NCBI RefSeq assembly: GCF_000026545.1 | Contig: NC_011601.1 | Length of the DNA: 64,000 nt | Reading direction: 5' to 3' (one strand) | From: Escherichia coli O127:H6 str. E2348/69 | Lineage (GTDB): Bacteria > Pseudomonadota > Gammaproteobacteria > Enterobacterales > Enterobacteriaceae | In this document: positions 3,117 through 47,980 of the stretch, one piece after another | Numbering within the stretch: position 1 is the first letter of the stretch | Layout of the letters: the number at the start of each line of letters is the position of its first letter | The notes under the pieces: model-generated | Seen by the model: only the letters and a program-made list of their open reading frames with translations | The model's database searches: none | Told to the model about the DNA's origin: nothing | Program-made: the position numbers and the translations under genes

Positions 3117-4225
3117 TTTGGCAACTTACCGACGATAAACGCTGGTCGGCGCTACGTCAGCGTTTTAGCTGGGTTGAGGAGATGCATCACACGCCACAAG
3201 ACCCTGAGCATCATGGTGAAGGCGACGTCGGCGTACATACCGAAATGGTGCTTAACGCCCTCATTACTCTGCCAGAATTCCAGCAACTCCCCGCTCAACA
3301 GCAGGAAGTTTTATGGGCGGCGGTGTTATTGCATGATGTTGAAAAGCGCAGCACTACCGTGCAGGAAAACGGACGTATTCAGTCTCCTGGTCATGCTCGT
3401 CGGGGCGAACTGACGGCCCGACAAATTTTATGGCGCGATATCCCAACGCCGTTCGTGCTGCGCGAGCAAATTGTTGCACTGGTGCGTCTGCATGGGTTAC
3501 CGCTATGGTTACTGGAACGCCCGGAACCGGAGCGTTTGTTGCTCACGGCTGCAATGCGCATCGACACGCGTCTGCTCGCTTTGCTTGCTCGTGCCGATCT
3601 GCTTGGTCGCCAAAGCCCGGATCAGCAATCAATGCTGGAACGCATCGATCTGTTCGAGCTGTTTTGCCATGAGCAACAATGCTGGGGAAAAATGCGCCCG
3701 TTCGTTTCTGATTCCGCACGCTGGCATTACCTGACCCATGAGCAAAGTTCTCCTGATTTTGTTCCCTGGGGGGCTGAACCTTTTGAGGTTATTTTGCTGT
3801 GTGGCTTACCGGGTATGGGCAAAGATCGCTATATCAGTGAACAGTGCCAGGGAATTGACGTTATCAGCCTTGATGATATGCGGCGGCGAATCAATGCCAG
3901 CCCGGATGACAAAACCGCTACCGGGCGTATTGTGCAACAGGCAAAAGAAGAGGCGCGCGTTTTTTTACGCCAGAAAAAGCCGTTCATCTGGAATGCAACG
4001 AACATTACCCGCCAGCTGCGTAGCCAGCTCATCAGTCTGTTTACGGCTTACGGCGCACGAGTAAAAATCGTTTATCTGGAAGTGCCATGGGCGCAATGGA
4101 AGCAGCAAAATGCCAGACGCGAGTATGCAGTTCCTGAAGCGGTCGTGATGCGGATGGCCTCAAGGCTGGAAGTTCCTCAACCTGATGAAGCACATAGCGT
4201 GGAGTATCGGGTGATTGAAAGGTAA
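3113..4225 (+). CDS. HD-domain phosphohydrolase fused to P-loop kinase-like domain (putative RNA end-healing enzyme)
   Basis: 370 aa ORF; start overlaps upstream stop (ATGA); N-terminal H..HD motifs ([17 protein letters not shown]); C-terminal Walker A-like [10 protein letters not shown]. Confidence 0.65.
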
Positions 4226-4247
4226 ATAAATATCCTCCGGCATAGCC

Positions 4248-5797
4248 CTGTCTCTTATACACAAATCCCCACCCGGGGATTTGTGATGTCTGTCAGTCTG
4301 CTTTAGGGGGACTCTTTCCATCCGGTAGTTTCCTTCCTCCCCGGCAGCGATTTTTTGAACTTTTTCCTCACCTGTTGATCTTCTCTTATATTTCATTTTC
4401 TTCGGGTCTGTTATGGTACTTTCTGATTGTTATTCATGGGCTAACGAGCAGTTTGGACATGCCCGTCTCGGTGATCCGCGTCGTACACGACGCCTTGTGT
4501 CACTGGCCTCTTCTCTCGCTCAGCATGCAGGTCTTTCTATTGTGAAATCATCCCAGTCCACTGCTCAGGTTGAAGGTGCGTACCGCCTGATACGTAACCC
4601 GTCTGTGTCCCCGCAAGCCATTGCCGAAGCCGGATTTACCGCCACTGTAAGGGCATGTGAGGCTCATCCGCTGCTCCTCGCGCTGGAAGACACCACCACC
4701 ATTAACTTCAGTCACAGTACGGCATCTGATGACCTGGGGAATACCACCACTAACCCGAAGACGCGCGGGCTGCTGGCTCACTCTGTCCTGATGTACGCCC
4801 CCGACAGCGCCCTGCCAGTCGGTCTTATCGAACAGCAGCGCTGGAGTCGTGCCACGGACACCTACGGTGTTAAGCACCAGCGAAAAGAACGTCCCTATGA
4901 AGAAAAAGAAAGTTACCGCTGGCAGCAGGCTTCGGAGCGCATGGCCGAACGGCTGGGGGAGATACAGAAACGGGTAATCACTGTCTGTGACCGGGAAGCG
5001 GATATCTGGCATTACCTGCATTATAAAGTCAGCCACGGGCAGCGCTTCGTGGTGCGTGCAGCACAGAATCGCCGGCTGGAAGAAGCACCCGGCAAGCTCT
5101 TCGAACTGCCGGAAGTCCTGGCAACCGCGGGAAGCCACACGCTGAATGTGATGCAAAAAGGCGGGCGGGCAGCCCGCCAGGCCCGGATGTTCATCAGTTA
5201 CAGCGAAGTCAGCATAAAAAATCCCGACAACAGCGGCCAGGCGCTCCCGCTCACGTATGTCTGTTGCCGGGAGCAGGCAGAGGACGGCGCCTGCTGGCAT
5301 CTGCTGACGTCAGAAAAAGTGGCGAGTGCCGCCGATGCGCGACGTATCGTCAGCCATTACGAGCGACGCTGGCTGATAGAGGAATACCACAAGGCGTGGA
5401 AAAGTGGTGGTACATGTGTGGAATCGCTGCGAATGCAGACCCGGGATAACCTCGAGCGCATGGTGGTTATCAAGGCGTTTATCGCGGTGCGGGTGCTGGG
5501 CCTGCGGCAGGGCGGTATCAGTGAAGAAACACAAAATGACAGCTGTGAGAAAATACTGACGCCGACAGAGTGGAAACTGCTGTGGGTTAAGCTGGAAGGA
5601 AAACCGCTTCCGTCACAGATGCCGACACTGAAATGGGCCTGTCTGAAACTGGCGAAACTGGGGCGATGGCATGACAGCAAACGCACCGGTCGCCCCGGTT
5701 GGGTAGTCATGTGGGATGGCTGGTTCAGACTTCAGGATATGGTTGAGGGTTACCTGGTGATGAAGTCTCTTGATCAGGAGATCTGATCAAGAGACAG
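4248..5797 (+). mobile_element. IS4-family IS50(Tn5)-like insertion sequence, copy 1 (1550 bp)
   Basis: Ends CTGTCTCTTATACACAAATCC and AGATCTGATCAAGAGACAG (the latter matching the Tn5 inside end as recalled); 9-10 bp duplication cggcatagcc; identical to copy 2. Confidence 0.85.
4413..5786 (+). CDS. IS4-family DDE transposase (Tn5 Tnp-like)
   Basis: 457 aa; Tn5 transposase-like motifs GDPRRT, VCDREADI, RWLIEEYHKAWKSGG, DNLERMV, DSKRTG. Confidence 0.88.
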   Translation: MVLSDCYSWANEQFGHARLGDPRRTRRLVSLASSLAQHAGLSIVKSSQSTAQVEGAYRLIRNPSVSPQAIAEAGFTATVRACEAHPLLLALEDTTTINFSHSTASDDLGNTTTNPKTRGLLAHSVLMYAPDSALPVGLIEQQRWSRATDTYGVKHQRKERPYEEKESYRWQQASERMAERLGEIQKRVITVCDREADIWHYLHYKVSHGQRFVVRAAQNRRLEEAPGKLFELPEVLATAGSHTLNVMQKGGRAARQARMFISYSEVSIKNPDNSGQALPLTYVCCREQAEDGACWHLLTSEKVASAADARRIVSHYERRWLIEEYHKAWKSGGTCVESLRMQTRDNLERMVVIKAFIAVRVLGLRQGGISEETQNDSCEKILTPTEWKLLWVKLEGKPLPSQMPTLKWACLKLAKLGRWHDSKRTGRPGWVVMWDGWFRLQDMVEGYLVMKSLDQEI

Positions 5798-5893
5798 CGG
5801 CATAGCCGGAGGTTTTTCAAATGCGCCTATAAGGCTCTCTTACCAGCCGCGCCCTAACAGGCGCACACGATCTGACATTTGCATCCAACTTCG

Positions 5894-6352
5894 TTACTTA
5901 CGGCCCGTAAACGGGCTGCCCGGATAGGGAATCGATAACTGCTCTCCCATTTTATCCTCTTCAAGCTGGTGCTTTATGTAATCCTGTATCTTCGCCGTGT
6001 TCTTACCCACCGTATCGACGTAATACCCTCTGCACCAGAACTCCCTGTTCCTGTACTTGAATTTCAAATCACCAAACTGCTCGTAAAGCATCAGACTGCT
6101 TTTCCCTTTCAGATATCCCATAAAGCCGGATACGCTCATTTTGGGCGGGATCTCCACAAGCATATGGATATGATCTGCACAGCATTCAGCTTCCAGAATC
6201 CGTACACTTTTCCACTCACACAGCTTTCTCAAAATACAGCCTATTGCTCTACGCTTCTCTCTGTAGAACACCTGTCTTCGGTATTTTGGCGCAAATACTA
6301 TGTGATATTTACAGTTCCATCGGGTGTGCGCTAAGCTCTTTTCGTTCCCCAT
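5894..6352 (-). CDS. tnpA: IS200-family transposase TnpA (Y1 HuH)
   Basis: MGNEKSLAHTRWNCKYHIVFAPKYRR N-terminus, HIHMLV HuH motif, C-terminal catalytic Tyr region; ORF 5894..6403 with start at internal Met. Confidence 0.85.
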   Translation of the reverse strand: MGNEKSLAHTRWNCKYHIVFAPKYRRQVFYREKRRAIGCILRKLCEWKSVRILEAECCADHIHMLVEIPPKMSVSGFMGYLKGKSSLMLYEQFGDLKFKYRNREFWCRGYYVDTVGKNTAKIQDYIKHQLEEDKMGEQLSIPYPGSPFTGRK

Positions 6353-27135: not shown

Positions 27136-29388
27136 TTATCCGTTCTGGACTTCCCCTGCCAACCAACGCGCCGCAACAATAACCCCCTGCCCCAGAGACA
27201 ACCCGCCGTCACCCGCCGGTAAACTCTGTGGAAAGAGCAATGTGAAATCAGCGAGATAATGCGCCAGACGTGCACGCAGCAAACGGTTATGAATAACCCC
27301 GCCGCTAAATACCAGCGTAGTGATACCACGCATCGTGGCCTGCTCACGCATCAACGCAGCAAAACCCTGCGCCAGCGCATCATGAAACGCCCACGCGCGT
27401 TGATTAACCGGAGCCTGCCAGTTCAGCCACTGCTGCCAGAAAGTGGCGAGATCCAGTTGATTATCCACCAGCGGCATCGTCACCGGATGCGTCACTCCCT
27501 GGCTCGAAGCCGCCAGCGCCTCGAGAGCACAAGCCGCTTCACCTTCATAACTTAACGTGGCTGGCGCACAGCCCAGCGCCGCCGCTACGGCATCGAACAA
27601 ACGTCCACACGATGATGCCATCGGCGCGTTAATTCCACGCTCAATAGCCCGCGCCAGCACGCTCCAGTTTTGCTGTTGCACTCTTGCCGTTTCAGAGTAA
27701 TTCTGCCACTCCGGCACAAAGCGCAGGCACTGCGCCAGCAGGTTTCGCCACGGCTGCTTCGCAGCCAAATCGCCCCCCGGAAGCGCCACCGCAGGCAAGC
27801 CGCCCAGGTGCTGGCATTCACGATAGTTCACCCGCAAGCACTCGCCGCCCCACAAAGCGCCGTTCTCCCCCATACCAATACCGTCGAGCGTCAACGCAAT
27901 GACATCTCCGCCATCCAGAGGCCAGAGGTGTTCTGCCAGACACGCCGCTGCGTGGGCATGATGATGCAGTACCGTTTGCGTCGGCAGATTCATTTCGCGC
28001 GCCCACTGGCTGGAGACATAGCCCGGATGCGCGTCATGCACAACGTATTGCGGAGTGAAATCGTAGATGTTTTGCATCAGGCGTAACGCTTCGCGCCACT
28101 GCATCTGGATGCCATCGTCACTTAAATCGCCCAGATGCTGACTCAACACCGCTTGTTCGCCGCGCACCAGGCAGAAGGTATTTTTCAGATCCGCGCCGAG
28201 ACACAGCACAGGCGGAACATTTTTAAAGCCCGGAGGCAAAGCCAGCGCATCCGGCACATACCCCCGCGAACGGCGCAGCATTTCGCCGCTTTCGCGCACC
28301 ACCGAATCATCCATCCGCTGCACGATGTCGCGGTTATGTATCAAGAATCCGTCGGCAATGCCCTGCAAATCCGCCAGCGCCTGTTCGTTGCTGATAGCCG
28401 GTGGTTTACCGCTCAGGTTGCCGGAGGTCATCACCAGCGGGCATTGCAGTTCCTGTAACAGCAAATGCTGGAGCGGGTTCGCAGGCAACATTACCCCGAC
28501 TTCGTTAAGGCCAGGGGCGATATCATCACAAAGCTCAGGAACGTATTTTTTATCCACCAGCACAATCGGCGCGGCGGGCGTGGTAAGCAACTGACGGGCA
28601 GCGTCTGGTAAACCTTCTGCCGTTGGCAACATGACCGCCAGCGGTTTCGCCGGGCGATGTTTGCGCGCCCGAAGTGTCGCCACCGCGTTACTGTTACGTG
28701 CATCGCAGGCAAGATGAAATCCGCCAATCCCTTTGATGGCGACAATGTTGCCCATTTTTAACTGTGCGATAGCTGCCTGTAATGCCGCCTCTTGTTCTGC
28801 ATGTTCACCATGACTTACCCATTCAAGATGGGGGCCACACTCCGGGCAGGCCACCGGCTGGGCGTGGAAGCGACGATCGAGCGGGTCACAGTACTCTTTG
28901 TCACAAGCCGGACACAGCGGAAACGCCGCCATCACGGTAAACGGGCGGTCGTAAGGCATGGCGCGAATAATGGTGAAACGCGGGCCACAGTGGGTACAGT
29001 TGATAAACGGATAACGCCAGCGTCGTTCGCCTGGGGTATTCATTTCGGCAAGGCAAGCAGGGCAAGTCGCGGCATCGGGAACAATTTGCGTATTCATGAC
29101 GCCACCCGCGCTCTGGCGGATGGTGAACTCAGTGGGCAGTTGTGACCAGATAAACGGCTCACGCTCGACGCTATCAATACGCGCCAGTGGCGGGCAGTGC
29201 TGATGCAATTGAACAAGAAACGTTTCCGGATCTTCCAGCAGCCGGACTTCTACGCCATCGCCGTCATTACAGACATCGCCGTGAAGATTTAATTACTGTG
29301 CCAGTTGCCAGACAAACGGACGAAAACCGACGCCCTGCACTTTGCCACGAATACGCAGTTGGACACCGCAAGATGTGTTTTTTGCCAT
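27136..29388 (-). pseudogene. hypF: Carbamoyltransferase HypF with premature ochre stop at codon 32
   Basis: Reading from ATG (rc of 29386..29388): [31 protein letters not shown] then TAA (rc of 29293..29295), then in frame LNLHGDV... through the 690-aa ORF. Confidence 0.85.
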
Positions 29389-29540: not shown

Positions 29541-30068
29541 TTAGAACATCAGCGCCGTGCGGCGGCGTTTTTCTGCGCTCAGTTGTTCAAGTTTATTACG
29601 ATCGACACAAATCAGCGCATGGGTCGGGCAAGCCGCCATACACGCCGGGCCGTCTTCACGATGGTTGCACAGGTCGCATTTATTGGCTTCGGCTTTGTCA
29701 GCCCGTACATTCAGTCCTGCGCCGCTGTTGCGAATCACCGGACGCACCACCACTTCCATCGCACCATACGGGCAAGCCACAACGCAGGTTTTGCAACCAA
29801 TACAACGTTCCTGCATGACATGAACAAACCCTTTATCACGGCTGATAGCACCATTCGGGCAGACGTTAGCGCACGGTGCATCTTCACACTGACGGCAAAC
29901 TGTCGCCGTGGAAATGTTCACACCTTTAATGACATGGATACGCGGTAAAAATGTTTCCGGGGTCAGCGATGCACAGTCCTGATTTTCCTGATGAGAAACC
30001 ACGCACGCCACTTCACAGGTACGGCAACCAATACATTTACTCGCGTCAGCAATGATGAAACGGTTCAT
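29541..30068 (-). CDS. hydN: Electron transport protein HydN (4Fe-4S ferredoxin-like)
   Basis: [22 protein letters not shown]..., multiple CxxCxxCxxxCP motifs. Confidence 0.93.
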
Positions 30069-30436: not shown

Positions 30437-31986
30437 CTGTCTCTTATACACAAATCCCCACCCGGGGATTTGTGATGTCTGTCAGTCTGCTTTAGGGGGA
30501 CTCTTTCCATCCGGTAGTTTCCTTCCTCCCCGGCAGCGATTTTTTGAACTTTTTCCTCACCCGTTGATCTTCTCTTATATTTCATTTTCTTCGGGTCTGT
30601 TATGGTACTTTCTGATTGTTATTCATGGGCTAACGAGCAGTTTGGACATGCCCGTCTCGGTGATCCGCGTCGTACACGACGCCTTGTGTCACTGGCCTCT
30701 TCTCTCGCTCAGCATGCAGGTCTTTCTATTGTGAAATCATCCCAGTCCACTGCTCAGGTTGAAGGTGCGTACCGCCTGATACGTAACCCGTCTGTGTCCC
30801 CGCAAGCCATTGCCGAAGCCGGATTTACCGCCACTGTAAGGGCATGTGAGGCTCATCCGCTGCTCCTCGCGCTGGAAGACACCACCACCATTAACTTCAG
30901 TCACAGTACGGCATCTGATGACCTGGGGAATACCACCACTAACCCGAAGACGCGCGGGCTGCTGGCTCACTCTGTCCTGATGTACGCCCCCGACAGCGCC
31001 CTGCCAGTCGGTCTTATCGAACAGCAGCGCTGGAGTCGTGCCACGGACACCTACGGTGTTAAGCACCAGCGAAAAGAACGTCCCTATGAAGAAAAAGAAA
31101 GTTACCGCTGGCAGCAGGCTTCGGAGCGCATGGCCGAACGGCTGGGGGAGATACAGAAACGGGTAATCACTGTCTGTGACCGGGAAGCGGATATCTGGCA
31201 TTACCTGCATTATAAAGTCAGCCACGGGCAGCGCTTCGTGGTGCGTGCAGCACAGAATCGCCGGCTGGAAGAAGCACCCGGCAAGCTCTTCGAACTGCCG
31301 GAAGTCCTGGCAACCGCGGGAAGCCACACGCTGAATGTGATGCAAAAAGGCGGGCGGGCAGCCCGCCAGGCCCGGATGTTCATCAGTTACAGCGAAGTCA
31401 GCATAAAAAATCCCGACAACAGCGGCCAGGCGCTCCCGCTCACGTATGTCTGTTGCCGGGAGCAGGCAGAGGACGGCGCCTGCTGGCATCTGCTGACGTC
31501 AGAAAAAGTGGCGAGTGCCGCCGATGCGCGACGTATCGTCAGCCATTACGAGCGACGCTGGCTGATAGAGGAATACCACAAGGCGTGGAAAAGTGGTGGT
31601 ACATGTGTGGAATCGCTGCGAATGCAGACCCGGGATAACCTCGAGCGCATGGTGGTTATCAAGGCGTTTATCGCGGTGCGGGTGCTGGGCCTGCGGCAGG
31701 GCGGTATCAGTGAAGAAACACAAAATGACAGCTGTGAGAAAATACTGACGCCGACAGAGTGGAAACTGCTGTGGGTTAAGCTGGAAGGAAAACCGCTTCC
31801 GTCACAGATGCCGACACTGAAATGGGCCTGTCTGAAACTGGCGAAACTGGGGCGATGGCATGACAGCAAACGCACCGGTCGCCCCGGTTGGGTAGTCATG
31901 TGGGATGGCTGGTTCAGACTTCAGGATATGGTTGAGGGTTACCTGGTGATGAAGTCTCTTGATCAGGAGATCTGATCAAGAGACAG
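30437..31986 (+). mobile_element. IS4-family IS50(Tn5)-like insertion sequence, copy 2 (1550 bp)
   Basis: Same termini as copy 1; perfect 9-bp target duplication agctaggct at 30428..30436 and 31987..31995. Confidence 0.88.
30602..31975 (+). CDS. IS4-family DDE transposase (Tn5 Tnp-like)
   Basis: Identical 457-aa protein to copy 1. Confidence 0.88.
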   Translation: MVLSDCYSWANEQFGHARLGDPRRTRRLVSLASSLAQHAGLSIVKSSQSTAQVEGAYRLIRNPSVSPQAIAEAGFTATVRACEAHPLLLALEDTTTINFSHSTASDDLGNTTTNPKTRGLLAHSVLMYAPDSALPVGLIEQQRWSRATDTYGVKHQRKERPYEEKESYRWQQASERMAERLGEIQKRVITVCDREADIWHYLHYKVSHGQRFVVRAAQNRRLEEAPGKLFELPEVLATAGSHTLNVMQKGGRAARQARMFISYSEVSIKNPDNSGQALPLTYVCCREQAEDGACWHLLTSEKVASAADARRIVSHYERRWLIEEYHKAWKSGGTCVESLRMQTRDNLERMVVIKAFIAVRVLGLRQGGISEETQNDSCEKILTPTEWKLLWVKLEGKPLPSQMPTLKWACLKLAKLGRWHDSKRTGRPGWVVMWDGWFRLQDMVEGYLVMKSLDQEI

Positions 31987-32112
31987 AGCTAGGCTGGGGG
32001 TTCCGGAAAGCTTTCAGCTTTGAGCCAGTTATTAAAACCCCTTTTGATTTGTTAAAACACCTTGCGGTCTGGCAACTGCAAGTGTCAAACAAGAAATCAA
32101 AAGGGGGTCCCA

Positions 32113-32571
32113 ATGGGGAACGAAAAGAGCTTAGCGCACACCCGATGGAACTGTAAATATCACATAGTATTTGCGCCAAAATACCGAAGACAGGTGTTCT
32201 ACAGAGAGAAGCGTAGAGCAATAGGCTGTATTTTGAGAAAGCTGTGTGAGTGGAAAAGTGTACGGATTCTGGAAGCTGAATGCTGTGCAGATCATATCCA
32301 TATGCTTGTGGAGATCCCGCCCAAAATGAGCGTATCCGGCTTTATGGGATATCTGAAAGGGAAAAGCAGTCTGATGCTTTACGAGCAGTTTGGTGATTTG
32401 AAATTCAAGTACAGGAACAGGGAGTTCTGGTGCAGAGGGTATTACGTCGATACGGTGGGTAAGAACACGGCGAAGATACAGGATTACATAAAGCACCAGC
32501 TTGAAGAGGATAAAATGGGAGAGCAGTTATCGATTCCCTATCCGGGCAGCCCGTTTACGGGCCGTAAGTAA
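32113..32571 (+). CDS. tnpA: IS200-family transposase TnpA (Y1 HuH)
   Basis: Identical to copy 1 TnpA. Confidence 0.85.
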   Translation: MGNEKSLAHTRWNCKYHIVFAPKYRRQVFYREKRRAIGCILRKLCEWKSVRILEAECCADHIHMLVEIPPKMSVSGFMGYLKGKSSLMLYEQFGDLKFKYRNREFWCRGYYVDTVGKNTAKIQDYIKHQLEEDKMGEQLSIPYPGSPFTGRK

Positions 32572-32722: not shown

Positions 32723-33151
32723 ATGGGTTCATGGGGAATGGAGGCTCTCGAAAGCGACGAAGGGCTGGATTTGATTAATTGGGTAGAGGAACAACTGCAA
32801 GATGATTCGACCTTTGATGCCGAGTCAATTGTTCAACGCTTAAGCCAGCATGAAGATTTGTTCGGATTTCAGGGAGATGAAGAATTTCTCTACGATAATA
32901 ATGTTATCGGTCTCGTTGAACTTATCATTCAAAAAGCAGCCGGGAAAAAAATCACATCGAGTAAACAAATTGATCAACTCGACGGTTATCAGCTCACGTC
33001 GACTTTCAGCAAAAAACTCCAGGGCCGTTTACAAACAATCGACGACACACATGAGTGGATAATGCTTTTCGAGGGGCGAGCACGCGAAAAAGCAAAAGCA
33101 TATCTGATTGAGCTTACTGATAAATTAAGAGTAGTAAAGACAACAGCCTGA
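32723..33151 (+). CDS. Hypothetical acidic protein (142 aa), function unknown
   Basis: Intact ORF with downstream hairpin terminator; no family recognised by inspection. Confidence 0.5.
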   Translation: MGSWGMEALESDEGLDLINWVEEQLQDDSTFDAESIVQRLSQHEDLFGFQGDEEFLYDNNVIGLVELIIQKAAGKKITSSKQIDQLDGYQLTSTFSKKLQGRLQTIDDTHEWIMLFEGRAREKAKAYLIELTDKLRVVKTTA

Positions 33152-33242
33152 ATGACAAACAAGGGCGCGCAAAATTAAGAATCTGCGCCCTTTCAAAGCC
33201 CGACAGGCGTAGCGCATCAGGCGATTTAGCGTCTGCCATCAG

Positions 33243-33662
33243 TCAAAGAAACCATTCCGGCTTAACGCCAAATCGGGCTGAAAGTGCCTTAATGTGGGAT
33301 ATCGTCAGGGATCGTTGTCCAGATAAAATCTGACTGACCAGGGATTTAGAGCCGATTTCGTTCTTCAAATCCGCATAGGTCAGATTATGTTGATCAATCA
33401 GCGTACGAAGTAACGCCACGCCAACCGACATTGCTGCAACGGCTTTGTCGAACTCTGCAAACTTTTCGTTATTGTTTTCATATTCTGCAATGCGGCTCGC
33501 CAGAAAGTCGATAAGTGGATTGGTGTCATCTTCTTCAATCAAATATTCGACCAGTTCCAGTGCTTCACGATAATCATCTTCTGAGTCACTGCCTCCCAGA
33601 AAGGGGACTGCATTGACCAGTTCTCTTGTTGCTTTAACAGCGCGTGCAGCATTAGCAGTCAT
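33243..33662 (-). CDS. higA: HigA-like antitoxin (HTH, Xre family)
   Basis: 139 aa; resembles K-12 HigA as recalled (AVPFLGG, ALELVEYL, IGSKSLVSQILSGQRSLT, FGV); start overlaps toxin stop. Confidence 0.75.
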   Translation of the reverse strand: MTANAARAVKATRELVNAVPFLGGSDSEDDYREALELVEYLIEEDDTNPLIDFLASRIAEYENNNEKFAEFDKAVAAMSVGVALLRTLIDQHNLTYADLKNEIGSKSLVSQILSGQRSLTISHIKALSARFGVKPEWFL

Positions 33663-33970
33663 TCTTTGTTCTCTCTGTAGTAACGTGTCAGTTTGTCATA
33701 CTCTGCGTGATTCGTGATGTGCTTCACAAAGAACCGCTTATTAACAAAGTTTATGTAGGCAATAACCCTAAGATTGTTCCCGCCGACATCCAGAACGTAC
33801 CATTTGTTGCGATATTTAAAATTGTCGAGGTTGGGAAAAGCCGTTCGCATTTCTTCTGGCGTAGAAAAATCCGTTTCCTTAATAACCCGATACAATGAGT
33901 GTAGAGCCAGAGCGTCGTTAGGATATTTGCGCGCACACTCTTCAAATGGCGCTTTCGAAATGATGTGCAT
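33659..33970 (-). CDS. higB: HigB-like mRNA interferase toxin (RelE/ParE superfamily)
   Basis: 104 aa from internal Met with SD aggaag; FPNLDNFKY...YVLDVGGNNLRV...HAEYD resembles K-12 HigB as recalled. Confidence 0.75.
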   Translation of the reverse strand: MHIISKAPFEECARKYPNDALALHSLYRVIKETDFSTPEEMRTAFPNLDNFKYRNKWYVLDVGGNNLRVIAYINFVNKRFFVKHITNHAEYDKLTRYYRENKE

Positions 33971-45901: not shown

Positions 45902-47980
45902 ATGTCATATACACCGATGAGTGATCTCGGACAGCAAGGGTTGTTCGACATCACTCGGACACTATTGCAGCAGCCCGATCTGGCCTCGCTGTGTGAGGCT
46001 CTTTCGCAACTGGTAAAGCGTTCTGCGCTCGCCGACAACGCGGCTATTGTGTTGTGGCAAGCGCAGACTCAACGTGCGTCTTATTACGCATCGCGTGAAA
46101 AAGACACCCCCATTAAATATGAAGACGAAACTGTTCTGGCACACGGTCCGGTACGCAGCATTTTGTCGCGCCCTGATACGCTGCATTGCAGTTACGAAGA
46201 ATTTTGTGAAACCTGGCCGCAGCTGGCCACAGGTGGGCTATACCCCAAATTTGGTCACTATTGCCTGATGCCACTGGCGGCGGAAGGGCATATTTTTGGT
46301 GGCTGTGAATTTATTCGTTATGACGATCGCCCCTGGAGCGAAAAAGAGTTCAATCGTCTGCAAACATTTACGCAGATCGTTTCTGTCGTCACCGAACAAA
46401 TCCAGAGCCGCGTCGTTAACAATGTCGACTATGAGTTGTTATGCCGGGAACGCGATAACTTCCGCATCCTGGTCGCCATCACTAACGCGGTGCTTTCCCG
46501 CCTGGATATGGACGAACTGGTCAGCGAAGTCGCCAAAGAAATCCATTACTATTTCGACATTGACGATATCAGCATCGTCTTACGCAGCCACCGTAAAAAC
46601 AAACTCAACATCTACTCCACTCACTATCTTGATAAACAGCATCCCGCTCACGAACAGAGCGAAGTCGATGAAGCCGGAACCCTCACCGAACGCGTCTTCA
46701 AAAGTAAAGAGATGCTGTTGATTAATCTCCACGAGCGGGACGATTTAGCCCCCTATGAACGCATGTTGTTCAACACCTGGGGCAACCAGATTCAAACCTT
46801 GTGCCTGTTACCGCTGATGTCTGGCGACACCATGCTGGGCGTGCTAAAACTGGCGCAATGCGAAGAGAAAGTCTTTACCACTACCAATCTGAATTTACTG
46901 CGCCAGATTGCCGAACGTGTGGCAATCGCTGTCGATAACGCCCTCGCCTATCAGGAAATTCATCGTCTGAAAGAACGGCTGGTTGATGAAAACCTCGCCC
47001 TGACCGAGCAGCTCAACAATGTTGATAGTGAATTTGGCGAGATTATTGGCCGCAGCGAAGCCATGTACAGCGTACTTAAACAAGTGGAAATGGTGGCGCA
47101 AAGTGACAGTACCGTTCTGATCCTCGGTGAAACTGGTACAGGTAAAGAGCTGATTGCCCGCGCGATCCATAATCTCAGTGGGCGTAATAATCGCCGCATG
47201 GTCAAAATGAACTGCGCGGCGATGCCTGCCGGATTGCTGGAGAGCGATCTATTTGGTCATGAGCGCGGGGCTTTTACCGGTGCCAGCGCTCAGCGCATTG
47301 GTCGTTTTGAACTGGCGAATAAAAGCTCACTATTCCTCGATGAAGTGGGCGATATGCCGCTGGAGTTACAGCCGAAGTTGCTGCGTGTATTACAGGAACA
47401 GGAGTTTGAACGTCTCGGCAGCAACAAAATCATTCAGACGGACGTACGTTTAATTGCCGCGACTAACCGCGATCTGAAAAAAATGGTCGCCGACCGAGAG
47501 TTCCGTAGCGATCTCTATTACCGTCTGAACGTATTCCCGATCCACCTGCCGCCACTACGCGAGCGTCCGGAAGATATTCCGCTGCTGGCGAAAGCCTTTA
47601 CCTTCAAAATTGCCCGTCGTCTGGGGCGCAATATCGACAGCATTCCTGCCGAGACGCTGCGCATCCTGAGCAACATGGAATGGCCGGGCAACGTGCGTGA
47701 GCTGGAAAACGTCATTGAGCGCGCGGTATTGCTAACACGCGGCAACGTGCTGCAGCTGTCATTGCCAGATATTGCTTTACCAAAACCTGAAACGCCGCCT
47801 GCCGCAACGGTTGTCGCCCAGGAGGGCGAAGATGAATATCAGTTGATTGTTCGCGTGCTGAAAGAAACAAACGGCGTGGTTGCCGGGCCTAAAGGCGCTG
47901 CGCAACGTCTGGGGCTGAAACGCACGACTCTGCTGTCACGGATGAAGCGACTGGGAATTGATAAATCGGCATTGATTTAA
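45902..47980 (+). CDS. fhlA: Formate hydrogenlyase transcriptional activator FhlA
   Basis: Start MSYTPMSDLGQQ at 45902; GAF domains, sigma-54 AAA+ ([14 protein letters not shown]) and HTH. Confidence 0.94.
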   Translation: MSYTPMSDLGQQGLFDITRTLLQQPDLASLCEALSQLVKRSALADNAAIVLWQAQTQRASYYASREKDTPIKYEDETVLAHGPVRSILSRPDTLHCSYEEFCETWPQLATGGLYPKFGHYCLMPLAAEGHIFGGCEFIRYDDRPWSEKEFNRLQTFTQIVSVVTEQIQSRVVNNVDYELLCRERDNFRILVAITNAVLSRLDMDELVSEVAKEIHYYFDIDDISIVLRSHRKNKLNIYSTHYLDKQHPAHEQSEVDEAGTLTERVFKSKEMLLINLHERDDLAPYERMLFNTWGNQIQTLCLLPLMSGDTMLGVLKLAQCEEKVFTTTNLNLLRQIAERVAIAVDNALAYQEIHRLKERLVDENLALTEQLNNVDSEFGEIIGRSEAMYSVLKQVEMVAQSDSTVLILGETGTGKELIARAIHNLSGRNNRRMVKMNCAAMPAGLLESDLFGHERGAFTGASAQRIGRFELANKSSLFLDEVGDMPLELQPKLLRVLQEQEFERLGSNKIIQTDVRLIAATNRDLKKMVADREFRSDLYYRLNVFPIHLPPLRERPEDIPLLAKAFTFKIARRLGRNIDSIPAETLRILSNMEWPGNVRELENVIERAVLLTRGNVLQLSLPDIALPKPETPPAATVVAQEGEDEYQLIVRVLKETNGVVAGPKGAAQRLGLKRTTLLSRMKRLGIDKSALI

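Follow-up and report, generated by a model that had tools for sequence, protein, structure and literature searches.

An ochre codon early in hypF in one sequence of Escherichia coli E2348/69, a candidate clone-private nonsense mutation

Does Escherichia coli O127:H6 strain E2348/69 lack a complete HypF, and with it the ability to mature its hydrogenases, or is the loss confined to one sequence of the strain? The question is raised by the 64,000-nucleotide stretch analyzed here (the window), in which hypF is interrupted by a stop codon shortly after its start. Below, we describe the lesion and its surroundings, compare the window with other records of the strain and with public sequence collections, and weigh the explanations for the stop together with its expected effect.

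The interrupted hypF gene and its surroundings

The hypF coding region (750 codons and a stop) occupies positions 27136 to 29388 on the minus strand, and the Pfam domains and RefSeq annotation agree with the gene name given in the initial annotation. Translation from the native ATG (29388 to 29386) halts exactly where that annotation had placed a stop, at an ochre TAA in codon 32 (29293 to 29295); the frame then continues as LNLHGDV... and stays open for 718 more codons, ending with the native stop (27136). The substitution lies at 29295, an A on the plus strand and a T on the coding strand, and the window reads GCACAGTAATTAAAT where all the full-length hypF copies that we fetched read GCACAGCAATTAAAT. 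The proposed C-to-T origin from CAA is borne out by these copies, since all three E2348/69 RefSeq assemblies, like each of the other full-length copies obtained, have CAA (Gln) there. The site lies in neither a homopolymer nor a repeat, and because the stop is a single-base event, a chance statistic is not applicable to it. The gene is hypF, and yet as written, with a premature stop where its close relatives have a sense codon and the 750-residue frame broken, it cannot encode full HypF. In all other respects it equals the intact E2348/69 allele (WP_001107656.1): we found no extra stops, frameshifts, or deletions relative to that allele across the gene, and this lack of secondary decay means that the lesion must be very young if it is real at all.

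The conceptual full-length protein is near-identical to the E. coli HypF in the PDB and shows the four-domain architecture of the family, with Pfam E-values from 1e-15 to 1e-66: an acylphosphatase domain at residues 10 to 77, zf-HYPF zinc fingers at 108 to 141 and 158 to 190, a YrdC-like domain at 209 to 373, and a Kae1-like domain at 390 to 486 and 499 to 734. The stop falls within the acylphosphatase domain, past its phosphate-binding motif. Translation from the native start yields nothing beyond a stub of 31 codons (29296 to 29388, minus strand), which includes the GKVQGVGFR motif and lacks a foldable domain.

The genes around hypF appear undisturbed. In the annotation of base-identical records, hypF belongs to the hydN-hypF unit, a known operon (PMC6004506), beside the hyc/hyp/fhlA cluster, and the upstream gene hydN (29541 to 30068, minus strand) is annotated as intact. 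The initial annotation also described hyc, hypA-E, and fhlA as intact, and this stands, as a record in which these genes are annotated as complete matches the window base for base over them. Since hypF comes second and last in its operon, the stop should have no polar effect on other genes. Polarity on downstream genes was considered and set aside, none being expected when what comes after hypF is convergent IS remnants and a convergent norW.

Several other features of this region deserve mention in their own right. Nested and broken IS elements (IS1397, ISEc21, and IS3-family remnants) fill the space from norW to the end of hypF (window 23173 to 27062); in the close relative RM14723, norW directly follows hypF. 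We considered an IS-remnant reading frame beside hypF as a marker for the E2348/69 neighborhood and rejected it as too widespread (375 blocks). A pair of elements, ISEc13 and IS200C, occurs twice, at about 4413 to 6352 and about 30602 to 32571, some 26 kb from each other. The two copies of ISEc13 form direct repeats (1,550 bp, 99.9% identical) and those of IS200C an inverted pair (681 bp, 100%), so that deletion or inversion of the segment carrying recA, alaS, csrA, norRVW, and hypF could occur between them. In K-12-type strains ascGFB lies between hycI and hydN; here that gap (about 32723 to 33970) holds a HigB-toxin/HTH-antitoxin pair together with a DUF4259 gene, an island that is also present, free of IS elements, on the Nissle-type contig L009 described below. 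Finally, the formate hydrogenlyase activator gene (window 45902 to 47980) is labeled flhA rather than fhlA by RefSeq in the E2348/69 records, a naming slip that invites confusion with the flagellar export gene.

Other E2348/69 records and recurrence of the change

A 2.4-kb query around hypF gave near-perfect matches to three RefSeq assemblies of E. coli O127:H6 E2348/69 (NZ_CP059840.2, NZ_LT827011.1, and NZ_LT903847.1), all other matches being at most 98.8% identical. In each of the three, hypF is annotated as an intact gene of 750 amino acids (WP_001107656.1) with no pseudogene flag, and the gene differs from that of the window by one mismatch, at 29295, where the coding strand has T in the window and C elsewhere. 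Over its whole length, the window equals NZ_LT827011.1 at 63,999 of 64,000 bases, the hypF base being the sole difference. Against NZ_CP059840.2 there are two differences over the same 64,000 bases, namely, the hypF base and one G inserted in rpoS.

The rpoS difference places the window within the history of the strain. In rpoS (about 61474 to 62467), GGG stands for GG at 62076 to 62078 on the minus strand, and RpoS is cut short to a product ending in ...LIRAGREV*. The same insertion is present at 100% identity in LT827011.1, described as "variety 2" from the Sanger Centre stock, and in its derivative LT903847.1, where rpoS is flagged as frameshifted; it is absent from CP059840.2. It agrees with the "G insertion at position 390" of rpoS published for the streptomycin-resistant stock of E2348/69, the source of the genome of Iguchi et al. 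(PMC5491219). As this insertion is shared, the window belongs to the streptomycin-resistant lineage, and the insertion shows that the stock acquires loss-of-function mutations. A search for truncated RpoS products in the protein collection used below returned a single Logan match, because NCBI entries follow the deposited annotation.

The stop cannot be called a property of E2348/69 as a strain, since the three other assemblies carry CAA and one of them is the streptomycin-resistant stock resequenced. The initial annotation had proposed comparison with related strains as a check on the stop and had named read data showing CAA as a refutation of it. On this point the resequenced stock comes close to a refutation, although the clone that was resequenced is a different one from the clone sequenced for the window.

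The accession lists of the protein collection, which are sorted and of which the first four entries are given for each protein, offer a further clue to where the T resides. For five other E2348/69 proteins that the window encodes, the list includes a CAS105xx accession directly after a CAM44 accession (CAS10499, CAS10500, CAS10516 [NorW], CAS10528, and CAS10544 [FhlA]). In the list for intact HypF, CAM4505853 is followed by an EFA... accession, with no CAS entry between them. The CAS105xx accessions are presumably the protein series of FM180568, and the lack of a CAS entry for intact HypF then implies that this 2009 record annotates no intact HypF of such sequence. The missing entry fits a stop lying in the deposited FM180568 record; taken together with the rpoS marker, it makes FM180568 the likely origin of the window, with hypF probably carried there as a pseudogene.

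Outside the strain, the allele is very rare. A 61-mer centered on codon 32 and bearing the T matched none of 5,298 complete E. coli genomes perfectly, the best matches all having one mismatch. The products that the stop would leave (690, 653, 635, 607, and 598 amino acids, together with a 55-amino-acid stub from an upstream start) were absent from a collection of approximately 15 billion proteins that includes de novo gene calls from public read sets and in which intact HypF was found. The 31-residue stub itself occurs on many contigs, all of which, apart from one contig and one similar place, are cut at the contig end with C or CA at codon 32.

The exception, L009, is a 51-kb contig (contig 79) of the Logan run ERR12735642, with hypF at 4001 to 6253 and a true TAA at codon 32. 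Its de novo gene calls comprise the 31-residue stub and a separate 653-residue product that starts at the ATG of codon 98. This hypF has 36 other differences from that of the window, and its bit score of 4429 against Nissle 1917 and ATCC 25922 is the value that corresponds to one mismatch in the E2348/69 comparison. Judged by this score, the CAA-to-TAA change is apparently its only difference from those strains. The Nissle-type background of the contig implies that the same codon-32 change arose there independently, and its presence in real read data of another strain shows that Q32* is a viable natural allele. A recurrence of this kind is unsurprising, given that the contig was found by searching for the exact stub in a very large collection. 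As a side observation, the hypF-norW segment is matched in two places in the Nissle 1917 genome NZ_CP007799.1 (about 3049457 to 3054414), the second with its own "carbamoyltransferase HypF" feature, which suggests either a local duplication or an assembly artifact.

The initial annotation had likened the expected phenotype to that of Shigella, and for this we found no support. A 32-amino-acid entry named "acylphosphatase, partial [Shigella sonnei]" was considered as a parallel disruption at the site and was rejected as an assembly artifact: such fragments end at scaffold N-gaps, at contig ends, and once at adapter sequence.

Origin of the stop and its expected effect

HypF has three active sites linked by an internal channel: the acylphosphatase domain converts carbamoyl phosphate to carbamate, the YrdC-like domain forms carbamoyl-AMP, and the Kae1-like domain passes the carbamoyl group on to HypE, at its C-terminal cysteine (PMC6022934, PMC6594144). 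That all NiFe hydrogenases need HypF, as the initial annotation held, is confirmed by hypF deletion mutants, in which all hydrogenase activity is gone (PMC2853565), and in vitro hydrogenase maturation likewise needs HypF (PMC9418501). On the strength of this literature, the stop, if it is carried by living cells, is expected to be a null allele. Translation from the native start would halt after 31 residues, inside the acylphosphatase domain; with that domain missing, HypE would stay uncarbamoylated and the cyanide ligands would not be made. The Fe(CN)2CO cofactor would then go unformed, hydrogenases 1, 2, and 3 would be inactive, and formate hydrogenlyase would give no H2 gas despite intact hyc, hypA-E, and fhlA. 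A literature search found no phenotype data for E2348/69 that bear on this expectation and no paper mentioning E2348 together with hypF.

Our preferred account, in which we place moderate confidence, is that the stop is a real nonsense mutation private to a clone of the streptomycin-resistant E2348/69 lineage, a single G:C-to-A:T transition that turned Gln32 (CAA) into an ochre codon. The change would be private and very recent, given that the remainder of the gene is base for base the intact allele, and it would most probably have originated in the sequenced clone, as with the rpoS frameshift in the same laboratory lineage. The data fit an error in the record too, whether a miscalled base, a consensus fault, or a change introduced later, with the bacteria themselves carrying CAA and a working hypF. 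Because no independent data set has the T in an E2348/69 background, a base-call error fits equally well, and the CAA of every other E2348/69 assembly, the same laboratory stock included, is what such an error predicts; so are the 61-mer missing from all 5,298 genomes, the truncated product missing from the de novo calls on public read sets, and the freedom of the gene from secondary decay. A clone-private mutation would produce the identical pattern, however, and the site is an atypical context for an error, being neither homopolymeric nor repetitive. Moreover, the one other difference from CP059840.2, in rpoS, is a documented real mutation, and the same codon-32 change occurs in an unrelated read set. 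We therefore regard an erroneous record as quite possible, though we lean against it. A laboratory origin by cytosine base editing was also examined. A 20-nucleotide protospacer with a CGG PAM would put the C at position 7, but position 4 still has its C, the editing of which would turn codon 31 into TAG; the target C stands in a disfavored GC context, and we found no positive evidence for such an origin.

Whether a real stop would abolish HypF altogether depends on what the ribosome can do beyond it. The first in-frame start past the stop is the TTG of codon 61 (29206 to 29208, minus strand), as the initial annotation stated; it would give a product of 690 residues. The suggestion made there, that restart at this codon could yield an N-terminally truncated HypF without the acylphosphatase domain, holds as to the product; as to the site, the TTG is weaker than the ATG of codon 98 (29095 to 29097, minus strand), being a non-ATG codon with Shine-Dalgarno pairing near the mean. 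Calculated pairing with the anti-Shine-Dalgarno sequence of 16S rRNA is −5.3 kcal/mol for the native start, −5.9 for codon 98, and −3.5 for codon 61, against a mean of −2.7 kcal/mol over all hypF positions, about 26% of which score −4 or stronger and about 10% −6 or stronger. The ATG of codon 98 lies 195 nucleotides downstream of the stop behind a Shine-Dalgarno-like GGGTGG, is the start that the gene caller chose in L009, and would yield 653 residues lacking only the acylphosphatase domain, with the zinc fingers and all later domains retained. In the predicted local fold, the codon-98 region is paired in a stem and the Shine-Dalgarno-like site is buried. Codon 98 is thus the better restart candidate of the two, and still an unconvincing one; restart there would be inefficient, and either product is without the first catalytic domain.

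That the allele is real and leaky, with such a product supporting some hydrogenase maturation, is in our view unlikely. A fragment of nearly this extent, HypF(92-750), is folded and stable in crystals (PDB 3TSP/3TSQ), and the in-frame ATG with its ribosome-binding motif offers a route to it. But a pairing score of this order is equaled at roughly 10 to 26% of arbitrary positions in hypF, the predicted fold hides the site, and the restart is distant from the stop. The absent domain, moreover, performs the first step and feeds a labile intermediate into the channel (PMC6022934, PMC6594144), and the nearest natural counterpart, the truncated HypF1 of Cupriavidus necator, is reported not to function in E. 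coli under anaerobic conditions (PMC9100943, PMC7460606). The narrower proposition, that the stop is real and that HypF(98-750) made from Met98 works in vivo, maturing some hydrogenase and making the acylphosphatase domain dispensable under some conditions, seems very unlikely to us.

We give practically no credence to decoding of the TAA itself, by programmed readthrough or a suppressor tRNA, to give full-length HypF, and we found no support for it at codon 32. The codon is UAA rather than UGA, so that selenocysteine insertion does not apply, and there is no stop conserved in orthologues, all relatives having a plain Gln codon, CAA, there. The five tRNAs of the window, four Arg(ACG) and one Ser(GCT), include no suppressor. 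The base after the stop is U, and in E. coli termination is reportedly most efficient at UAA followed by U (attributed to Poole et al. 1995).

Significance and comparison with known systems

The stop is a real feature of this sequence, an ordinary nonsense allele of a fully characterized gene that is private to the window sequence. Its consequence can be foreseen from what is already known and teaches nothing new about HypF or hydrogenase maturation; its weight is practical, as a caution for users of the reference genome or of the stock. Should the window be the 2009 E2348/69 reference that is in wide use, annotation based on it, along with metabolic models and with RNA-seq or transposon analyses of enteropathogenic E. 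coli, will treat hypF and all hydrogenase activity as absent, whereas resequenced E2348/69 stocks have an intact hypF. In view of the link drawn between hydrogenase-3 and anaerobic acid resistance (PMC2853565), stocks that differ at the hypF base could differ in acid-survival or anaerobic experiments.

The closest parallel within the window is the rpoS insertion 33 kb away, which, like the hypF stop, is an inactivating single-base lesion of the same laboratory lineage. The two differ in that the rpoS insertion is found in three records of the lineage and in print, while no other record has the hypF stop. L009 shares the CAA-to-TAA change at codon 32 exactly but differs in carrying an allele of the Nissle 1917/ATCC 25922 type and in having no IS elements upstream.

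As to the protein that might remain, the crystallized E. coli HypF(92-750) (PDB 3TSP, 3TSQ, and 3TTC) almost equals the Met98 restart product, so that such a fragment could fold; it is, however, an engineered and overexpressed construct. C. necator HypF1 resembles the restart product in its lack of N-terminal domains, although it differs in keeping only one of the three canonical domains. As to function, the nearest known systems are the K-12 strains DHP-F2 and Keio hypF::Km, in which loss of HypF leaves no hydrogenase activity and no H2 from formate hydrogenlyase (PMC2853565, PMC9418501). Compared with those hypF deletions, the window lesion is a point nonsense change in an enteropathogenic background, with the rest of the gene intact, and the same loss of hydrogenase activity would be expected of any cells that carry it.
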